Source of the DNA: Sarea resinae
Lineage: Eukaryota
DNA: 64,000 bases
NCBI GenBank assembly: GCA_026026165.1
Contig: JAPEUD010000001.1
Coordinates: 682,001 to 746,000 of the forward strand
Reading direction: 5' to 3'
Shown: positions 8,548 to 57,331 of the stretch, in pieces
How the letters are laid out: every line of letters begins with the position of its first letter
How positions within the stretch are numbered: the first letter of the stretch is position 1
The notes under the pieces: generated by a model
What the model was told of the DNA's origin: nothing
The model's database searches: none
Seen by the model: the letters and a program-made list of their open reading frames with translations, nothing else
Position numbers and translations under genes: made by a program

Positions 8548-8614
<67 letters not shown>
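8548..8614. repeat. Poly-G homopolymer, 67 nt
   Basis: Uninterrupted G run counted directly; a second short G run lies at about 8636-8644. Confidence 0.95.
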
Positions 8615-8615
<1 letters not shown>

Positions 8616-11384
8616 GGGATGGCATGGCGTGGATGGGGGGGGGGCGGACCGAGAGAGAGATGCCTCCGCTTCTCTTCCTCCAGTACGAGTACAGTAGTAG
8701 TAGTCAATGAGGACGAGTAAGGTACTTCTCCGTCCTTCTTCTCCTCTACATAGTAGACAGAAAGAGAATGGATGCGTCAGGTATGGAAGGATTGCTAAGG
8801 TAGGTCTCTCTACTCGTACTTGTTCCTCTGACCTCTGACCTCTGACCTTGAGGGCTTCTCACGGGAGATTGAGGGTGCCGTTTGGCTTGGGCGCGCCATC
8901 GTATGACTTGCATACCTTAGGTCTCCTTTGACAGATGATGATGATGATGATGATACCTAGGCCATGATGATGATATGGTTTCGACATTGGGGACAGTTGG
9001 GAGATGAGCACAGAGGTACCCTTGGACCCTGCGCTCAAGACCGGCAACGACGCCGCCACTGGGTAAGGCAGCTTAAATACGGATGTCGAGTGCAACAACA
9101 CTGTCTTGGAGACAGTGGTAGCGGGAGAGAGAGCTGGCACCTTGCCTGGGCCAGGCAAGGCAAGGTAGGTACAAAGCACCAATACAGTAGGTAGCCAAAG
9201 GATCTTGCTTTCCTGGGCTCTTCCACTCGTACCTGCAGCTCCAGACGTCCGCCGGGTACTCCGTACTGCATACCTTACTAGGTAGTAAATGAGGATCATG
9301 ATCCAATCTGTGGCAGCATCCGTCTGCGGCGATAGCTGGGCCAGTAGGTAAGGTCGCCATCGAGGAAATTGTCCTCGGCCATACCTGGGCACTTTAGGCG
9401 CAAAAGGGAGAGAGCTGGAGGAGAGAGCGGCGGCCCTTACTGGTTTGGTGGCTTCTCCGCCCTCTTTGGTCAGGTTCTATGCGCAGGAAGAGAAGGAAGA
9501 AAACGCCAGCGGCAGCACCCGAGACGAGCGACGGGGCGGGCCCTTGGCCTGTCTGAGCTCCACAATCAATACCTACTTCGTACGAACGACATCACCTACT
9601 CCGTACTTTACATGTATTGCACGCAGTAGCTCTCCAGCTTCTTATCGGGCCCCCCGCCTTGGCCAACTTCCAGACCAAGTTCGCTTGATAGGGATCGAGA
9701 TCTGTTACGGTTGATGGATCATCGCCGACCACAGCGATGATAGGAAGATAGGTAATGATAGAATGGTCAGGATCATGATCATAACTTGATGGTGTCTCCT
9801 CGCCTCTCTTCTCCTGGTGTGTATCCGTACGAAGCCACTGCGACAAGCTCCACGTCTCCACAATGGACTTGGCCATGCATGAATGATCGACACTTGACAG
9901 GTCGACTGATCATCACTTGGCATCTACCTACCACTCCCTCTGCGTCCATCTCATGTTTCCAGAATCACAGATCAGGTACGCTAGGGAGGTAAGGCAAGGT
10001 CCGAACCCCGTACTTGAGTAAGATCACAACCATGGGACTCGCAATGCTCATCATCATCATCATACATACCTACATGCATACATACATGCATGCATGAGCC
10101 CCGTCGTCTTCACTTGACTAGATGCGGGGGGCAGTGGGAAAAAGGGTCGCGGGAAAGGGGGCTATGTCCGTGATGTCTATTTCCGTCTCTCTCCCTCTCT
10201 ACTCCTGCCCTCATGTCCTCTCATCCTCCAGCTCTCAACCAGCTCTCGTCATCTTTTCCTGGACCTTCCATCGTGCATCTCTCTCCCGTATGCGCTTTTG
10301 CTTCGGAAAGAATCGTATCCAGGAGCGACGGCAGCTGTTGAATCAATCCTTAGTGGCATCGATATGCGTCAAGCCCGCTTGCATTTCCACAGGACCGCCG
10401 GTCGGGTCTATCCTCGTCTCGTGGGGGCTTAGGGTAGGACGAGAGAAACAAGAGAAGGAAGCGCTGAGTTGACTCTGAGCGCGTCGAAGACCTCTTGTGC
10501 GACACCATATGCATCTTGGAATACGGGCTCCGTGCAGAGCGGTAGTACGACGCCCAGAGCGCGCGCCTCTCTTCTCTCTCTCTCTCCCCTCAAGGATAGG
10601 CTCACCCCATAGCGGAGCCTCGACCGAATGAAGGCTACTCAATCGTCTACGCACCTACCATCGGTCCTCTCTACCCACTCGTACTTCGTACCTTGTCTGC
10701 TTTACCTTTTGCTGAGTACGTTAAGTTTTGCCTCGATCATGCGCACTGTCACTGCATCATTAGCTTGGCAGCGAACCTTGGCCTCATTGTGTCGCCTCCG
10801 ATCTCGTCGGTGAGCTACCAGAGAAGTCGTTTGCAGGGAGTGATTTAAGCTCCTTCTATCTTGAGTTTTGACTATGCACAGAATAAGACCACCATCTAAG
10901 TCGATGATGGCGTGAAAGCGGTGAGAAACGTTCTAGCGACCTCATGTCGATGATCTTCTTCTGTCGTGACATCTGCTAGGCCATGTGCGTTCTTGACGAT
11001 TGCACGATTGCGTGTTGAAATCAATCTTATAAGGTTGGGCTCTCCACGAGCTTCGCGCGCTGGTTGGATATACCCTACGACCGTGACTCTGCTTTTGGAA
11101 TCATCGCCGTCTCTGCAGGAGCGGTAGTGCTATTGTTGGAGCTTCCAGGACCTCACCATGGTAATGTAGCATGACCATTCGTTCGTGCCACCTCGAGCTG
11201 AGAACGAGTTCTTCGCACGCTGATGGACCGAGGATCCTATGACGATGGGAGATTCCGTCTTTCGTCCATTCATCGGCTGCGTACATCCACCCCAGGGAAT
11301 AATGACAGAACACATGGATGACGGGTATAATGACAGGGCAATTTCAAATCTTTCGATATCAAAGGCTAGCGAAGGCAGGAAAGT

Positions 11385-22511: not shown

Positions 22512-24971
22512 TCAGTCCCTCGAACCACCCAGATTCAACCAACTCATGTCCGACTCCCTCGTATCCCTCGCGCCATAGTCAGCCAACGCGATAGCTCCAA
22601 CGCCCATACCACCACTAGCAGAGCCGACGTTGCTACTGCTGCTATTATGGCTATTCGCGCCCCCGGGCAGCGGCGTGACCCGCCCTCCTTGCGGCTGGCC
22701 ACCAGGATATGGGAACCGCGTCAGAGTTGTCGACGAGCTATCTCTCTGCTGCTGCTGCTGTTGCAGCTGTTGATGGTGCGAAGACACCAAAGTCGGGGGA
22801 GCAAGCATGTTATTGGACGTATTCGGCGTGACGTTCGATTGCCGTGGCAGGTTCATGATATCGTAGCTGCTCTCCGTGTAGACGGAGCTCGTAGCTCTAT
22901 CACCGTTACTACTGGTCCTCCACTCAAGCGGCTGGATTGGGGTCCAGGAATGCACTTCCTCCTGCACGGAAGCGGGTACCCCGCTGGAAAACGCGTCCGG
23001 ATCGTCAATGGATGAGATATCAGATATGCTGTCAGCGGAACCTGGCCGCGATAGCTGCGCCGTAAGACCATCACTGACGGCCAGGCCAGCACCCTTGAAG
23101 TCTGTCGGCGAGTGGCCTATCGTAGGGCTGCCTCTCGACACCTCACTGAGATGGTCCTGACCGGAGCTGAAGCGGCCAAAGTTGAAGCGTGGCACCGCTT
23201 CGTCGCTGTTCGGCGTCACGATTGATGGCCGTTGAGGTCGTATTGGCCCCCTTGCATGATGAGAGTCGGTTAATTGCGACTGCGAGCCTTGGCTCGAATG
23301 TGATCCGTAGCTGTGTATGGAGCGACGCGACGGCTCCAAGGTGGCCAGATTGGTCGCGCTGTTGCCCGCAAAGTATTTACTCCATCCCGAGCTACGCGAT
23401 CTGCTGAGGGGATTTGTTCGAGGCTGAGCTGATCCGGCAGCGAAGTTAACACCTCTCCCCCGCTCCGGGGTTGAAGGATCCTTCTGCTTGAAGAGTGCCG
23501 CCTTCGCTCCACCGCTGCCTTTACCGAAGAGCTCTCTCTTGTGGCCGTCTGCTGCGCGGCCGGATATGATGGCCATGGATGTCTGAGACGCCATCGAGTC
23601 CATCTTGACGTGCGAGTACGATGGTGCTCCCTGTTCTCCACTCATGAAGCTCACCCCACGATCTACAAAGCTCATTCGATCCTTTTCGTCGCCGGCGGCT
23701 TGGTCGGTTCCGGGTCGGTTTTTATTGCGTTTCCATTTGATAAACAACAGAGCTATGATGCACAGGAGAGCAACGCCAAGAAGACTGCCAAGGACTGCAC
23801 CAAGGATCGTCAAGTCTTTTGATCGGGAAGTGTGATGGGAAGTGCCAATGGCCGCGGTGGTTGTTGTTGCTGTTGGAGACGTCGTCGAGGTGGGCGTTGT
23901 GGAAGAGCTCGGCGTAGCTGATGCATCGTGGACGTTAGTGTGATCATCGCCGCCGAATAGCTGATTCGCATCAACCCATGAGTTTTGTCGCTGGTTGAAG
24001 ATGCATATCGGATCTTGGTCATCGCCTCCAGAGATGACCGCGAGACCATTGTCGCCCTGAGCCAAAGAGAAGCCTGTTCGGGTAGCCGTTGGTGCGAGCG
24101 TGTTGTTGTAGGCAGGCCAGTCCTTCAACGTCAGGTCCCTCCTTCGTCGCTTTGCCGGACTCGGGCTTGGCGAGCTCGATGACGAAGCGGTCGAGCTGCC
24201 CACGGTCTGCCCCGAGGACGCGGGCTGGCCGTTGGCACCCAGCAGAGCGACTCGTGAGACCGCATTGGGCGACACCGACATGTCATATGTCTCGAGGACT
24301 TTGCTACCGTCGTCTCCTGTGACCAAGGTGCACTGCGCCTTGCTATCGTCCGGGAGGGCTTGTTGAAGGGTCACGTTAAGATCTTTCCAGCCGGCGGCCG
24401 GGTCGAAAGTGAAAACCTCGGTATTTTGGCTTCCGCCTCCAACCATGACGGCGCTACTACTGTTCCAAGGCATGAGGAGCGGTGCTACCGCGGGTGGGGC
24501 GTCGGAATTGAAGGCGTCGACACTATACGGAGAGTTGGTCGAGATGACGAAAGTCTGCGAAGAGGGTCCGTCGTCTCCATTTTGGGATCCGGCATAGACC
24601 AATATCGAGGAAGAGTCGTTCAGATAGACGGCCGCATGATTTTGCCGATTCTTCGTGACTTGGACCAGCGGTGTGATGGTTTCCCACGTCTTGTCCGAGA
24701 AAGAGTATCGTTGAAGTCCGGGATAGTTGCTTTGGGATGCATTGGCCGCACCGCCAACGACGTACATGGCCGCTCCACCGCCGCCATTGGGAGGTGCCGC
24801 CAAGACACAGCTTGCCCCCGTCGTCGAGACGCCCATCGGTATCTGTGCCCATTGCCCGCCTTCTTGCAGGGGAATGGATTGAAAGGCGTCTGGCGAATAT
24901 ACATAAAGAACGTTGTCGTTGATGACCGAACAGTGACCGCTCAAGGCCACGGGCGGCTTCGGGGGCGACAT
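22512..24971 (-). CDS. Intronless 819-aa single-pass membrane protein: kelch/galactose-oxidase-like beta-rich N-domain, S/T stalk, one TM helix, long disordered tail
   Basis: Kelch-like segments (GHCSVIND..LYVY, MYVVGG, HAAVYL..ILVYAG, VMVGGG, VISGG), a T-rich stalk, and TM LTILGAVLGSLLGVALLCIIALLFI followed by KWKRNK. Confidence 0.85.
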   Translation of the reverse strand: MSPPKPPVALSGHCSVINDNVLYVYSPDAFQSIPLQEGGQWAQIPMGVSTTGASCVLAAPPNGGGGAAMYVVGGAANASQSNYPGLQRYSFSDKTWETITPLVQVTKNRQNHAAVYLNDSSSILVYAGSQNGDDGPSSQTFVISTNSPYSVDAFNSDAPPAVAPLLMPWNSSSAVMVGGGSQNTEVFTFDPAAGWKDLNVTLQQALPDDSKAQCTLVTGDDGSKVLETYDMSVSPNAVSRVALLGANGQPASSGQTVGSSTASSSSSPSPSPAKRRRRDLTLKDWPAYNNTLAPTATRTGFSLAQGDNGLAVISGGDDQDPICIFNQRQNSWVDANQLFGGDDHTNVHDASATPSSSTTPTSTTSPTATTTTAAIGTSHHTSRSKDLTILGAVLGSLLGVALLCIIALLFIKWKRNKNRPGTDQAAGDEKDRMSFVDRGVSFMSGEQGAPSYSHVKMDSMASQTSMAIISGRAADGHKRELFGKGSGGAKAALFKQKDPSTPERGRGVNFAAGSAQPRTNPLSRSRSSGWSKYFAGNSATNLATLEPSRRSIHSYGSHSSQGSQSQLTDSHHARGPIRPQRPSIVTPNSDEAVPRFNFGRFSSGQDHLSEVSRGSPTIGHSPTDFKGAGLAVSDGLTAQLSRPGSADSISDISSIDDPDAFSSGVPASVQEEVHSWTPIQPLEWRTSSNGDRATSSVYTESSYDIMNLPRQSNVTPNTSNNMLAPPTLVSSHHQQLQQQQQQRDSSSTTLTRFPYPGGQPQGGRVTPLPGGANSHNSSSSNVGSASGGMGVGAIALADYGARDTRESDMSWLNLGGSRD

Positions 24972-32751: not shown

Positions 32752-35023
32752 TCAACAGATTCGATGCTCGGGCGGCCTCCACGGCACACCCAAGAGCTCA
32801 AAGATCTTCTTCTCGCTCTTCCCTTCGACGAGCACACCTTGCGTAATCCTCTCGCCGCTCTTGCTCCGAAGAACGTCCTGCCACAGTCCTCGCTGATTCA
32901 GTCGCATGCCTTTTTTCCGTGCGAGTAGCCGGATGCTTCGATTGAAGAGGTCATTGCCCGTGAAGTAGATCAAGGCAGCCCCCAGTTCATCCCAAGGAAC
33001 GAACAGAAAATCGATCCGCCGCCAGACTGGAGAGCCAGGCAGCGCCGATGCCCCGTGCCACTTTGTGCCGCTTGCATTATGCGTCGTAGCCAAGCCGGCT
33101 TTCAGAAACCCCCGATCAAATAGGGTGGGAATAACCCTCGATAGCATGACCTCCCGGACTACCTGGACTCGAGCATCTGGTTTGGTGATGATCAAATCAA
33201 TATCCCCTGAGTCGGCTGCTCCGCGTCGATAAGAACCCATCACGATGACTTGAAGTTCGGGATCGATGCTCTGACATAAGTTGTGGACCAAAGTCCCGTG
33301 AGCTTCAACTTCCGAGCGTGGAATCCGAGCTAGGAAATCGTCATAATGCGCAATGCCGATCTTCTGACTCGTGCTCAAATCTGCTTTCTCTTGCAGATCC
33401 GTCAGAGTTCGGAATCCTTGTGAGACCCATTTGGAGGCTTGTGACAGCCCAACCCCATATATGTTCAAGAAACATTGTAGAATAGAGTCTTCGGTATCGA
33501 CAGCGACATTATCAAGCCGACGGAGCCGGTTTGTCAAGACGATCTCCTCGATCTTGGAAGCCAGACGCTCACCGACGGATGGAAGGCTCAAGGCTTCTTC
33601 CTTCGTGGTAATATTCACGGTCTCTTTCCGGAGTACGGCAATGGCTTTTCGGTAGGCATAGATGCGCCATTTGTCGTTCATGCGATCGTAGTAATCAACC
33701 ATCTGTTGTAGGATCTCAATAGTTCGAGCATTGGGATTGTCGCTAGTATCAGTGCCATCGTGTTTGTGCATGCAATTAAATCGATCTTGCCATGACGTCG
33801 ACGAAGATGGCTTGTTCAGTTTCCTTTTCTTGGGATTTGGCGCATTTCCTTCTGACTCGCTGTTGTCACTGGCCGTCTGCCCGCTGGCATCGTCTTCTTC
33901 CTCGGAATCAAGTGGCTACACTGATTAGTACGAGACATGTAATATTCGACTGTTGATCTGGAGACTTACCAAATGTTCAATAGCCTTGGTTTGGCTTATC
34001 GCCTCGTCCAGAGCATCGCAACTTTCTCGTTGACCTATTTGCCCAGTGTCGTTTTGCGGAGGATGTATTGATGGTTCAGTCGAGCTCCCTCCCAGTTGGA
34101 CTACATCGGAGTGGCGTGGTGTTGGTTCTTCCGTCACTTATGGAGTCTGTGGTGTGCGGAGTACTGCCTTTTCAGGCTTTAGTTGGAGCGATGAATTGCT
34201 CGACTGTTCAGTGGTGCTGAGTTCGTGCTCTGTGGTGACTGGTGGAATATAACCTTCTACCCGAAAACGAGTCTGTTGGGGGTTCATTAGGAACCCAAAT
34301 GATATGCATTCTATAGGGTACGTCTCGTTGACCAGCGTGACATCTGCCTATATGCTTTTAGCTGGGACATTCAGGACAAGGGTTATCATACTCACAGGAA
34401 GATGTGATATTTTCAGAAATGAGAGGATGTCTCGATAGGTTATATTCCGGTCGACGATAACATGAGAGACGTCCTGTCCCCACTGCTTCAACCAGGTGGC
34501 CCCATACTCAATGGCTTTAGATATCTTCAGCCGACGTGCGGGTGCCACATCATCATTAGGAATAAAATCTGATATGGTCAGCTGAGAAGACGTATCGATA
34601 AATGAAAGTCTTACAGAAATTATGACCGTTAAATATCTTCTGTGCGTCCGGGATGCGATTAGGAGCTTCGACCCGCTTTCTCCTCCCAGATTTCCTTGAA
34701 GTCTCTTCAACTCTAGTATTGAGAGCTGTGGTTGATTGGGGACTACGGCCCAAATCTGAAGTTTGAGGGACTATAGCATGATTTGCTGGTAGCCCTGGAG
34801 CGGACGCCGTTTGTGAGACGGGTTGCACGGCAGGTTCGCCGAGAGGGCTGAGTGATTTAGCTGGAGGTCTGGACGGCTCTGAGTCATCGGGTTTCGGTTT
34901 GCGACTCTGCTTCAACAATGAACTTATGTTGCTCATGTCTTCTTCTTCTTCTTCCTCCAATGTCCCAAGGCTGTATAATTGGTTGAAGAAGGACGACTTT
35001 TCATCTTCCTCTTTCGACGCCAT
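32752..35023 (-). CDS. POL4: Family X DNA polymerase lambda/Pol4 with N-terminal BRCT. Exons 35023-34615, 34568-34396, 34347-33970, 33915-32752. Interrupted by an in-frame TAA at 34140-34138.
   Basis: BRCT (FIPNDDVAPARR...YGATW...SHVIVD), lyase domain (YAYRKAIAVLR), HhH (IYGVG) and catalytic motifs GSYRRG..SGDIDL, RRIDF, ALIYFTG, RLNQRGL. The exon 3 frame reads ...TPQTP*VTEEP. Confidence 0.92.
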
Positions 35024-35869: not shown

Positions 35870-36535
35870 ATGGTGAGGATTATCGCGATAGCCATAAAGC
35901 GCAAGGGAATGAAATGCTGATACTTATATGTTGCAGTCGTCCGGCAAAGTCAAGACCGCACAGCTCTGGGGCAAGAGCAAGGATGATTTGAAGAAGCAGC
36001 TGGATGAGCTGAAGACCGAGCTGGGAACTCTGCGTGTGCAGAAGATCTCCGGAGGCGCTGCTTCCAAGCTCACCAAGATGTACGTTTTCTCCGCCCTCGC
36101 CGCCGCGCGCTCGTCTCAGCCACCGTCTGGAGCCCTTTTCGTGTCGGACAGCGATGCTGGATAAAGAGGAACCTTTTCCTGGTCTAACTTTTCTTCTCAA
36201 TCCAGCCACGACCTCCGCAAGTCGATCGCCAAGGTCCTCACCGTCATCAACGCCAACCAGCGCGCACAGCTCCGTCTCTTCTATAAGAACAAGAAATACC
36301 TCCCTCTCGATCTCCGCCCGAAGCAGACCCGCGCCATCCGAAGACGGTTAACGAAGCATGAGGCATCGATTGTGTCAGAGAAGCAGAAGAAGAGACAGAC
36401 GCACTTCCCCCAGAGGAAGTTTGCTGTTAAGGTGCGTTAGAAGAGAGCCCAGGAATAGCGATGGTGGTGGTGTTGGGCATTACGTCGTGACAAAGTTCAA
36501 TGGGCTAATATTTGTGTCTTTAGGCTGAGGCATAG
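35870..36535 (+). CDS. RPL35: 60S ribosomal protein L35 (uL29). Exons 35870-35872, 35937-36079, 36206-36431, 36524-36535.
   Basis: [37 protein letters not shown]...[24 protein letters not shown]...[21 protein letters not shown]...[13 protein letters not shown]. Confidence 0.97.
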
Positions 36536-56052: not shown

Positions 56053-57331
56053 ATGAGTGCCGAAGAAGCTGAACAGAACGACGCCGGGTATGAAGAGAGC
56101 GGTGTGGGAGGCCCGGGAGCTCCAACGCCGTTGTCAGCTTTGGAGGTGAGAAACCTTCGATACTCTAAGACCAAATGATGCGCGACTGATATATCCTGAA
56201 GGGCGTCGCCGGCCTTACGGCTCGAGATATCAAACTCGTCGTGGATGGAGGATACAATACCGTCGAGTCCGTAGCTTATACGTACGCTTGACGCTTTCCT
56301 GTGCAGGCTCCAACACTCACATACCTCAGGCCGAGAAGAACGCTAGAACAGATCAAGGGCATCTCAGAGCAGAAAGCGACGAAAATACTTGCTGAAGGTT
56401 GATAAAGTGCTTCTCTGCATTATTGGACTTTGGCTGAATGCAGATTACAGCTTCAAAACTTGTGCCTATGGGATTCACGACGGCTACAGAGATGCATCAG
56501 CGGCGCAGCGAGTTGATTTCTATCACCACGGGTTCGAAACAACTAGACACTCTCTTGGCTGGAGGCATCGAGACAGGTTCTATCACCGAGCTGTTTGGGG
56601 AGTTTCGAACGGGCAAGAGCCAGATCTGCCATACCCTCGCCGTGACGTGCCAACTGCCCTTCGACATGGGTGGCGGAGAGGGCAAGTGCCTCTACATCGA
56701 CACTGAAGGCACATTCAGGTATGTCAGATTCTTGAAGTATCGAACTCCGCACAGTTCAAGGAAAATGCTTATCGCAAACCCTACCAGACCCGTACGTCTC
56801 CTTGCTGTCGCAAAACGCTACAACCTCTCGGGCGAAGAAGTCCTCGACAACATCGCCTACGCCCGCGCCTACAACTCCGACCATCAGCTCGAACTCCTGC
56901 ACCAAGCCTCGCAAATGATGTGCGAGACGCGCTTCTCCCTCCTCATCGTCGACAGCGCCACGTCGCTCTACCGGACCGACTTCATGGGCCGCGGCGAGCT
57001 CAGCTCGCGGCAAACGCACCTCGCCCGCTTCATGCGCACGCTGCAGCGACTGGCCGACGAATTCGGCATCGCGGTCGTCATCACCAACCAAGTCGTCGCG
57101 CAGGTCGACGGCGGGCCCAGCGCCATGTTCAACCCGGACCCCAAGAAGCCGATCGGCGGCAACATCATCGCGCACGCGTCGACGACGAGGCTGAGCTTGA
57201 AGAAGGGCCGCGGCGAGACGCGCGTGTGTAAGATTTACGATAGCCCCTGTTTGCCCGAGAGCGACTGTCTCTTCGCCATCAACGAAGACGGCATTGGCGA
57301 TCCGAGCCCGAAAGATTTGGAGAGGGATTGA
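56053..57331 (+). CDS. RAD51: Recombinase Rad51 (UvsC/Mei-3). Exons 56053-56145, 56202-56281, 56330-56397, 56451-56718, 56788-57331.
   Basis: HhH region [18 protein letters not shown], Walker A GEFRTGKS, Walker B LLIVDS, LYRTDF.GRGEL and [26 protein letters not shown] and MGFTTATE favour Rad51 over Dmc1. Confidence 0.98.

Follow-up and report, generated by a model that had tools for sequence, protein, structure and literature searches.

A probable recent nonsense allele of the DNA polymerase lambda gene in Sarea resinae

The stretch of DNA analysed here (the window, 64,000 nucleotides) comes from Sarea resinae, a resin-dwelling, endophytic ascomycete placed in the Xylonomycetes in one revision (PMC9157775). 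On its minus strand lies a gene that, judged by its sequence, is a family X DNA polymerase lambda (Pol4/PolX2), single in the genome. Its model has four exons (35023-34615, 34568-34396, 34347-33970 and 33915-32752) that join to 2124 nt and 707 codons, with introns of 46, 48 and 54 nt, and the only stops in the joined frame are codons 264 and 708. The upstream neighbour is an RPL35-like gene at about 35870-36400 on the plus strand. The features of the polymerase gene are as follows.

34615..35023, minus strand: exon 1 of Pol lambda (Pol4/PolX2), with the start ATG at 35023-35021; the N-terminus, mostly disordered, and the first BRCT residues; identical to residues 1-136 of the public protein P0002
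34569..34614, minus strand: intron 1, 46 nt, GTAAGA...CTGAC...CAG, placed from the sequence and P0002
34396..34568, minus strand: exon 2, BRCT domain, from the gene model, structure alignment, Pfam and predicted fold
34348..34395, minus strand: intron 2, 48 nt, GTGAGT...TAG, lacking a CTRAY branch site (CTAAA and CTGAA only), placed from the sequence
33970..34347, minus strand: exon 3, 378 nt, phase 0-0; end of the BRCT domain (to about codon 225), linker with conserved SLxLK and TPS motifs, and the stop
34138..34140, minus strand: premature TAA, codon 264; the run X3 contig has TCA (Ser) here, its sole difference lying at 34139
34137..34253, minus strand: 117-nt GTTATA...TAAG stretch, an intron in P0002, probably coding (39 codons) from sequence and ortholog alignment
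33916..33969, minus strand: intron 3, 54 nt, GTAAGT...CTAAT...TAG, from the sequence; unspliced frames of relatives likewise read into the junction
32752..33915, minus strand: exon 4, with the rest of the linker, the 8-kDa lyase, fingers, palm and thumb, and the normal TGA at 32754-32752, from Pfam, structure match and orthologs
33769..33771, minus strand: Met369, the first in-frame ATG past the stop, opening a 339-codon frame; within a conserved CMxKHDG motif, with a weak initiation context; Met in 116 of 119 orthologs

Pfam families PF14792, PF14791, PF10391 and PF14716, which describe the Pol beta-like palm, thumb, lambda fingers and 8-kDa HhH domains, all score above their cut-offs. The best sequence match in the PDB is full-length human Pol lambda (E 1.9e-74), with which the N-terminal BRCT region aligns from residue 63 onward. 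The predicted core superposes on Pol lambda crystal structures with a Z of 28.9 over 322 residues (rmsd 10.7, falling to 2.1 for the 244 residues of the polymerase part). The catalytic motifs downstream of the stop are intact, as the preliminary description of this DNA had claimed: aspartates D558, D560 and D622, GSYRRG and YFTG all line up with their counterparts in human Pol lambda. The Pfam score of the BRCT is weak (15 bits, against a cut-off of 21.3), and residues 131-220, in the BRCT region, are predicted as an alpha/beta domain with pLDDT of 94-97. Human POLL, the Aspergillus fumigatus PolX2 ("putative Pol4") and yeast Pol4 share the same order of BRCT, disordered linker, 8-kDa lyase, fingers, palm and thumb. 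The allele of this strain departs from the family in that it stops in the linker, where the 119 aligned orthologs are single chains (one of them lacking the segment). The combination of BRCT and catalytic core in one chain is thus absent for the TAA allele if the three canonical introns are spliced, and present in the TCA allele described below and in the orthologs. The closest public protein, P0002, is labelled Sarea resinae, is identical to the gene apart from a 39-residue gap, and is alone in its cluster; the next relatives are about 55% identical.

The interruption itself reads CCA-TAA-GTG on the minus strand; the TAA occupies 34140-34138 and is in phase with exon 3, whose frame stays open past the stop up to the GTAAGT donor at 33969, just as first described. 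It sits in the linker directly after the complete BRCT domain, and the four-exon model gives 263 residues ahead of it, in agreement with the BRCT-only product of about this size that had been predicted. As far as the sequence can be read, the stop is not accounted for by a canonical intron. Among five other same-frame pairs of open frames split by one stop, two do lie within introns; these have GTGAGT/GTAAGT as donors, CTGAC/CTAAT as branch sites and end in YAG. Elsewhere in the window, an 841-codon frame with kelch repeats ends at a TGA at 22512-22514 (minus strand), beyond which the reading stays open in phase for 247 codons that have no Pfam match; this TGA is probably the true stop.

The public annotation that gave P0002 excises 34253-34137 as a 117-nt GT-AG intron, which removes the stop. 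We regard this intron as probably an artefact of prediction, and the stretch as probably coding. The segment is kept in 118 of 119 orthologs, and the motifs within it are conserved: in SLxLK the S is found in 106, the first L in 105, the second L in 99 and the K in 110 of the 119, and in TP the T in 95 and the P in 92, a coding constraint that speaks against a true intron. As a candidate intron it has a GTTATA donor, no CTRAY near its end and an AAG acceptor, the last being a consequence of the mutation, which turns CAG into the weaker AAG. Splice-site statistics from 400 kb of genome (283 anchors and about 24 excess donors) are noisy on weak sites such as these; in them the GTTATA donor is not enriched (one seen against 0.7 expected), one GTT-type donor hexamer is enriched, and an A stands at acceptor position -3 in 20 of 103 candidates.

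It had also been claimed that no strong donor/acceptor pair removes the stop in frame. With respect to strength this holds, as none of the 12 stop-removing pairs of at most 200 nt has a CTRAY-type branch near its acceptor, but in-frame GT-AG pairs as such do exist, 96 of them being listed, and one is the pair used by the public annotation. As a control, in-frame GT-AG pairs of 45-150 nt span 419 of the 434 codons of exons 3 and 4, so that a "rescue" of this kind is nearly always available. Cryptic splicing could in principle act through 34253-34137, through a longer intron sharing the real acceptor of intron 3 (as five of the listed pairs do) or by skipping of exon 3, which is symmetric and would preserve the frame. 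The choice made by the public gene model speaks for such a rescue, as does the 668-aa spliced protein, which keeps the BRCT and the core, both predicted with pLDDT above 90; intron 2 of the same gene is also without CTRAY, and the noisy sample leaves AAG acceptors and GTT donors possible. Set against the retention of the segment with its motifs in the orthologs, the equally spannable control codons, the unenriched donor, the missing branch sites and the weakened acceptor, we consider it unlikely that splicing restores the protein in a useful share of transcripts, though some leak by this route is possible. A variant of the idea is that an intron is being born, in which the 117-nt exonic stretch would be spliced often enough, favoured by decay of the unspliced form, to yield the 668-aa polymerase, making it a polymorphic new intron derived from coding sequence. 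We hold this, too, to be unlikely; a literature search returned nothing specific on introns that hide stops. The SLxLK and TPS motifs of the segment (34144-34191, minus strand) are conserved in lichen-forming fungi, Eurotiomycetes and Dothideomycetes, while the linker after the BRCT is otherwise variable, and the TP could be a site for a proline-directed kinase.

Sequencing runs, four compared out of five listed and none of them RNA, give a direct view of the codon. In run X1, the likely source of the assembly, one contig spans 32500-34527 at depth 350 with zero differences and reads TAA, so TAA is the majority letter in that run, which is probably not independent of the assembly and whose contigs drop minor variants. 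Run X3, a soil metagenome from another study, contains a 250-nt contig over 34006-34255 that is identical at 249 of 250 positions, and its sole difference, at 34139, turns the stop into TCA (Ser); this contig has a depth of 2.2, is flagged as possibly erroneous and is the single observation of an intact allele. TAA and TCA segregate among near-identical genomes of the species, with the intact allele represented by that one depth-2.2 contig. Run X2 shows 0 differences over 428 positions in two pieces in or beside the gene that miss the stop codon, and run X4 gives a weak 38-nt match only. Among JGI metagenome contigs, a collection from which very close records may be left out, the exact pattern across the codon was not found, and a protein scan with exon 3 gave 152 pattern matches, none of them confirmed.

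One side of this comparison could be an artefact: the TAA might be an assembly error, or the TCA of X3 an error in a species where the stop is fixed. The probable tie of X1 to the assembly and the low depth of the X3 contig leave room for this. Against it stand the agreement of X1 over 2 kb at its depth, and the fact that the lone difference in X3 hits the very base that restores the serine of the orthologs, an outcome given by only 1 of 750 single random changes in the 250-nt contig (7 of 750 give any sense codon). We therefore hold an artefact on either side to be very unlikely, including the base-call error that had been offered as one explanation, since X1, though not independent, carries the TAA so deeply.

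The residue at the stop column points the same way. Across 119 orthologs, P0002 excluded, it is Ser in 72, Thr in 19, Gln in 2 and Trp in none; among the 30 nearest it is Ser in 24. Exon 3 used by itself as the query of another search, which favours proteins that align along the exon, finds Ser in 49 of 101 hits and again no Trp; all 101 extend at least 30 residues past the column, none ending at it. Given a near-identical sense allele with TCA and Ser as the commonest residue, the change reads as TCA>TAA, a C>A transversion at codon position 2 with loss of Ser264, and not as CAA>TAA.

The preliminary description was therefore wrong in proposing a CAA>TAA mutation of the RIP type. Several cytosine methyltransferase loci in the genome, two of them RID-like by eye, would be compatible with RIP. 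The change, though, is C>A and not C>T in a CpA context, Gln is as rare at the column as stated above, the stretch is single-copy (one match in the genome), and the indices over the gene, TA/AT of 0.55 and (CA+TG)/(AC+GT) of 1.28, lie outside the ranges that mark RIP. The probability of a RIP origin is negligible. The methyltransferase matches, six at five places (L047-L052), appear by eye to be RID-like on contigs C70 and C78 and DIM-2-like on C103 and C72, which suggests duplicated copies.

A premature stop need not abolish the protein if the message is recoded. Genes corrected by A-to-I editing in Fusarium graminearum and Neurospora crassa resemble the present case, being conserved genes of filamentous ascomycetes whose frame is interrupted by a stop; they differ in that the edit described for them is UAG to UGG in sexual tissue (PMC11156358), whereas the stop here is UAA, replaces a serine and is not fixed. 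Stage-specific editing of UAA to UGG, as in such premature-stop genes of Sordariomycetes, or readthrough, would restore the full-length protein. Fungal editing is described as preferring U at -1 and as acting on UAA, and the residue created by an edit does not have to be the ancestral one (PMC11156358, PMC13431901), so that the serine alone is insufficient as an argument against editing; the tests described there are not reported to include the class of this fungus. Two edits would be needed in this codon, and UAA editing is described as leading to UGA, still a stop, while searches for editing in Aspergillus nidulans and Botrytis cinerea are reported to have detected none (PMC11156358). Together with the lack of Trp at the column in both sets of relatives, the polymorphism of the stop, and RNA folding that finds no stable, readthrough-like structure around it (z = 0.32), this makes recoding highly improbable.

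A different way to keep function would be a split gene, with a BRCT peptide and a separate BRCT-less, Pol beta-like core. The internal methionine suggested earlier as its start, at 33771, is indeed in frame and corresponds to codon 369. The part of the protein that aligns with the crystallised core of human Pol lambda (residues 244-575) follows a few residues after it, so that the 339-aa product could be catalytically active. Five out-of-frame ATGs, however, lie between the stop and Met369, whose own context is weak, and the methionine is conserved in uninterrupted orthologs as ordinary coding sequence. No relative among the 101 ends at the stop column, and a search for short exon 3 fragments found none. 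In yeast, gap filling was seen in 16 of 24 events in the wild type, in 0 of 18 when Pol4 lacked its BRCT and in 0 of 21 when the gene was deleted (PMC3715435), and by this analogy a BRCT-less core is not expected to serve end joining. The split gene thus finds no support, and we give it a very small chance of being functional. A separate search for shorter proteins gave 2 hits from 90 candidates, both in common with the exon 3 search; both end just past the intron-3 donor, apparent calls of unspliced open frames and not split genes.

We consider it likely, instead, that the TAA arose very recently and abolishes the function of an end-joining polymerase that the fungus can probably do without; a second Pol X, Ku70/80 and ligase IV are still present in its genome. 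In eukaryotes, early stops upstream of exon junctions lead to decay of the mRNA. The last exon junction follows 168 nt after the premature stop and the normal stop about 1.3 kb after it, and the genome contains a UPF1 match, so decay is to be expected here. Ribosomes would terminate at codon 264, the mRNA would probably be degraded by nonsense-mediated decay, and at most the 263-aa BRCT fragment would be made. The strain would then lack Pol lambda function, and its gap filling in end joining would be reduced.

Such a loss would be tolerated because the enzyme is, by analogy to yeast, dispensable and the other components remain. According to a review of fungal repair, the gaps in yeast end joining are filled by Pol4 (PMC13451438), and yeast pol4 deletion strains are viable (PMC3715435); a literature search found no study of a pol4 mutant in filamentous fungi. 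The second Pol X, at L004:2269-4410 (plus strand) on contig C79, is a single open frame of 714 codons with the catalytic motifs, 26% identical to the first, and may provide backup. The pattern of two Pol X genes per genome is shared with Aspergillus fumigatus (PMC12828229). This second gene has a long insertion in the palm, gives no Pfam BRCT match and lies directly upstream of a gene that by eye is PDS5-like. Two Ku genes (Ku70 and Ku80) and three ATP-dependent ligases are also matched in the genome. Ligase IV was recognised by eye among the latter (L055); its family PF11411 gave no match anywhere, controls included. The loss is therefore plausibly cheap.

The state of the rest of the gene indicates the age of the allele. 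Of 138 core columns on which 90% of orthologs agree, the catalytic core is off consensus at 3, which is also the median for the relatives, so no decay is visible yet. In the BRCT region 2 of 18 conserved columns are off consensus, both conservatively (median 0 and mean 1.05 in relatives). No second lesion was found in the gene besides the TAA, and the nonsense allele appears very young. Of the readings put forward earlier, that of a recent nonsense allele, whether arisen in nature or in culture, is the one supported by the TAA of X1, the TCA of X3, the serine of the orthologs and the intact domains.

Polymorphic loss-of-function alleles in single isolates are familiar from population genomics. 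The present allele resembles other polymorphic nonsense alleles of non-essential genes in that a single substitution hits a gene otherwise intact and an intact allele exists in a near-identical relative, and differs in that the gene is a conserved DNA-repair polymerase. It is most likely an instance of this familiar variation, an ordinary recent knockout. A literature search found no report of this gene in Sarea resinae. The public protein owes its intact look to a predicted intron that covers up the stop, and the lesion would thus go unnoticed in surveys of repair genes; other gene models of this assembly may conceal lesions in the same way. The allele offers no new mechanism of recoding, and its value is mostly as a caution and a resource: if confirmed, the strain would provide a natural null for Pol lambda in a class of ascomycetes that has seen little study, and together with a TCA isolate it could be used to separate the end-joining roles of the two fungal Pol X enzymes.

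A link between loss of this polymerase and the abundance of microsatellites had also been raised. The window is indeed repeat-rich, with 63 tandem-repeat rows and simple repeats 2-4 times denser than in a 400-kb sample elsewhere on the same contig. The link fails on timing, because the intact allele persists in a near-identical relative, and the repeat content of the genome as a whole is left unexplained by the allele. In a fast-evolving lineage of Hanseniaspora, POL4 was lost among dozens of repair genes, including YKU70, along with homopolymer instability (PMC6528967). The two cases share the loss of an end-joining polymerase in a fungus; that loss is ancient and one of dozens, whereas here there is one fresh allele, with Ku, ligase IV and the second Pol X kept. 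The window also holds a 71-nt run of G at 8548-8618, possibly a sequencing or assembly artefact, and a Rad51 gene at 56438-57331 on the plus strand, about 21 kb from the polymerase gene.
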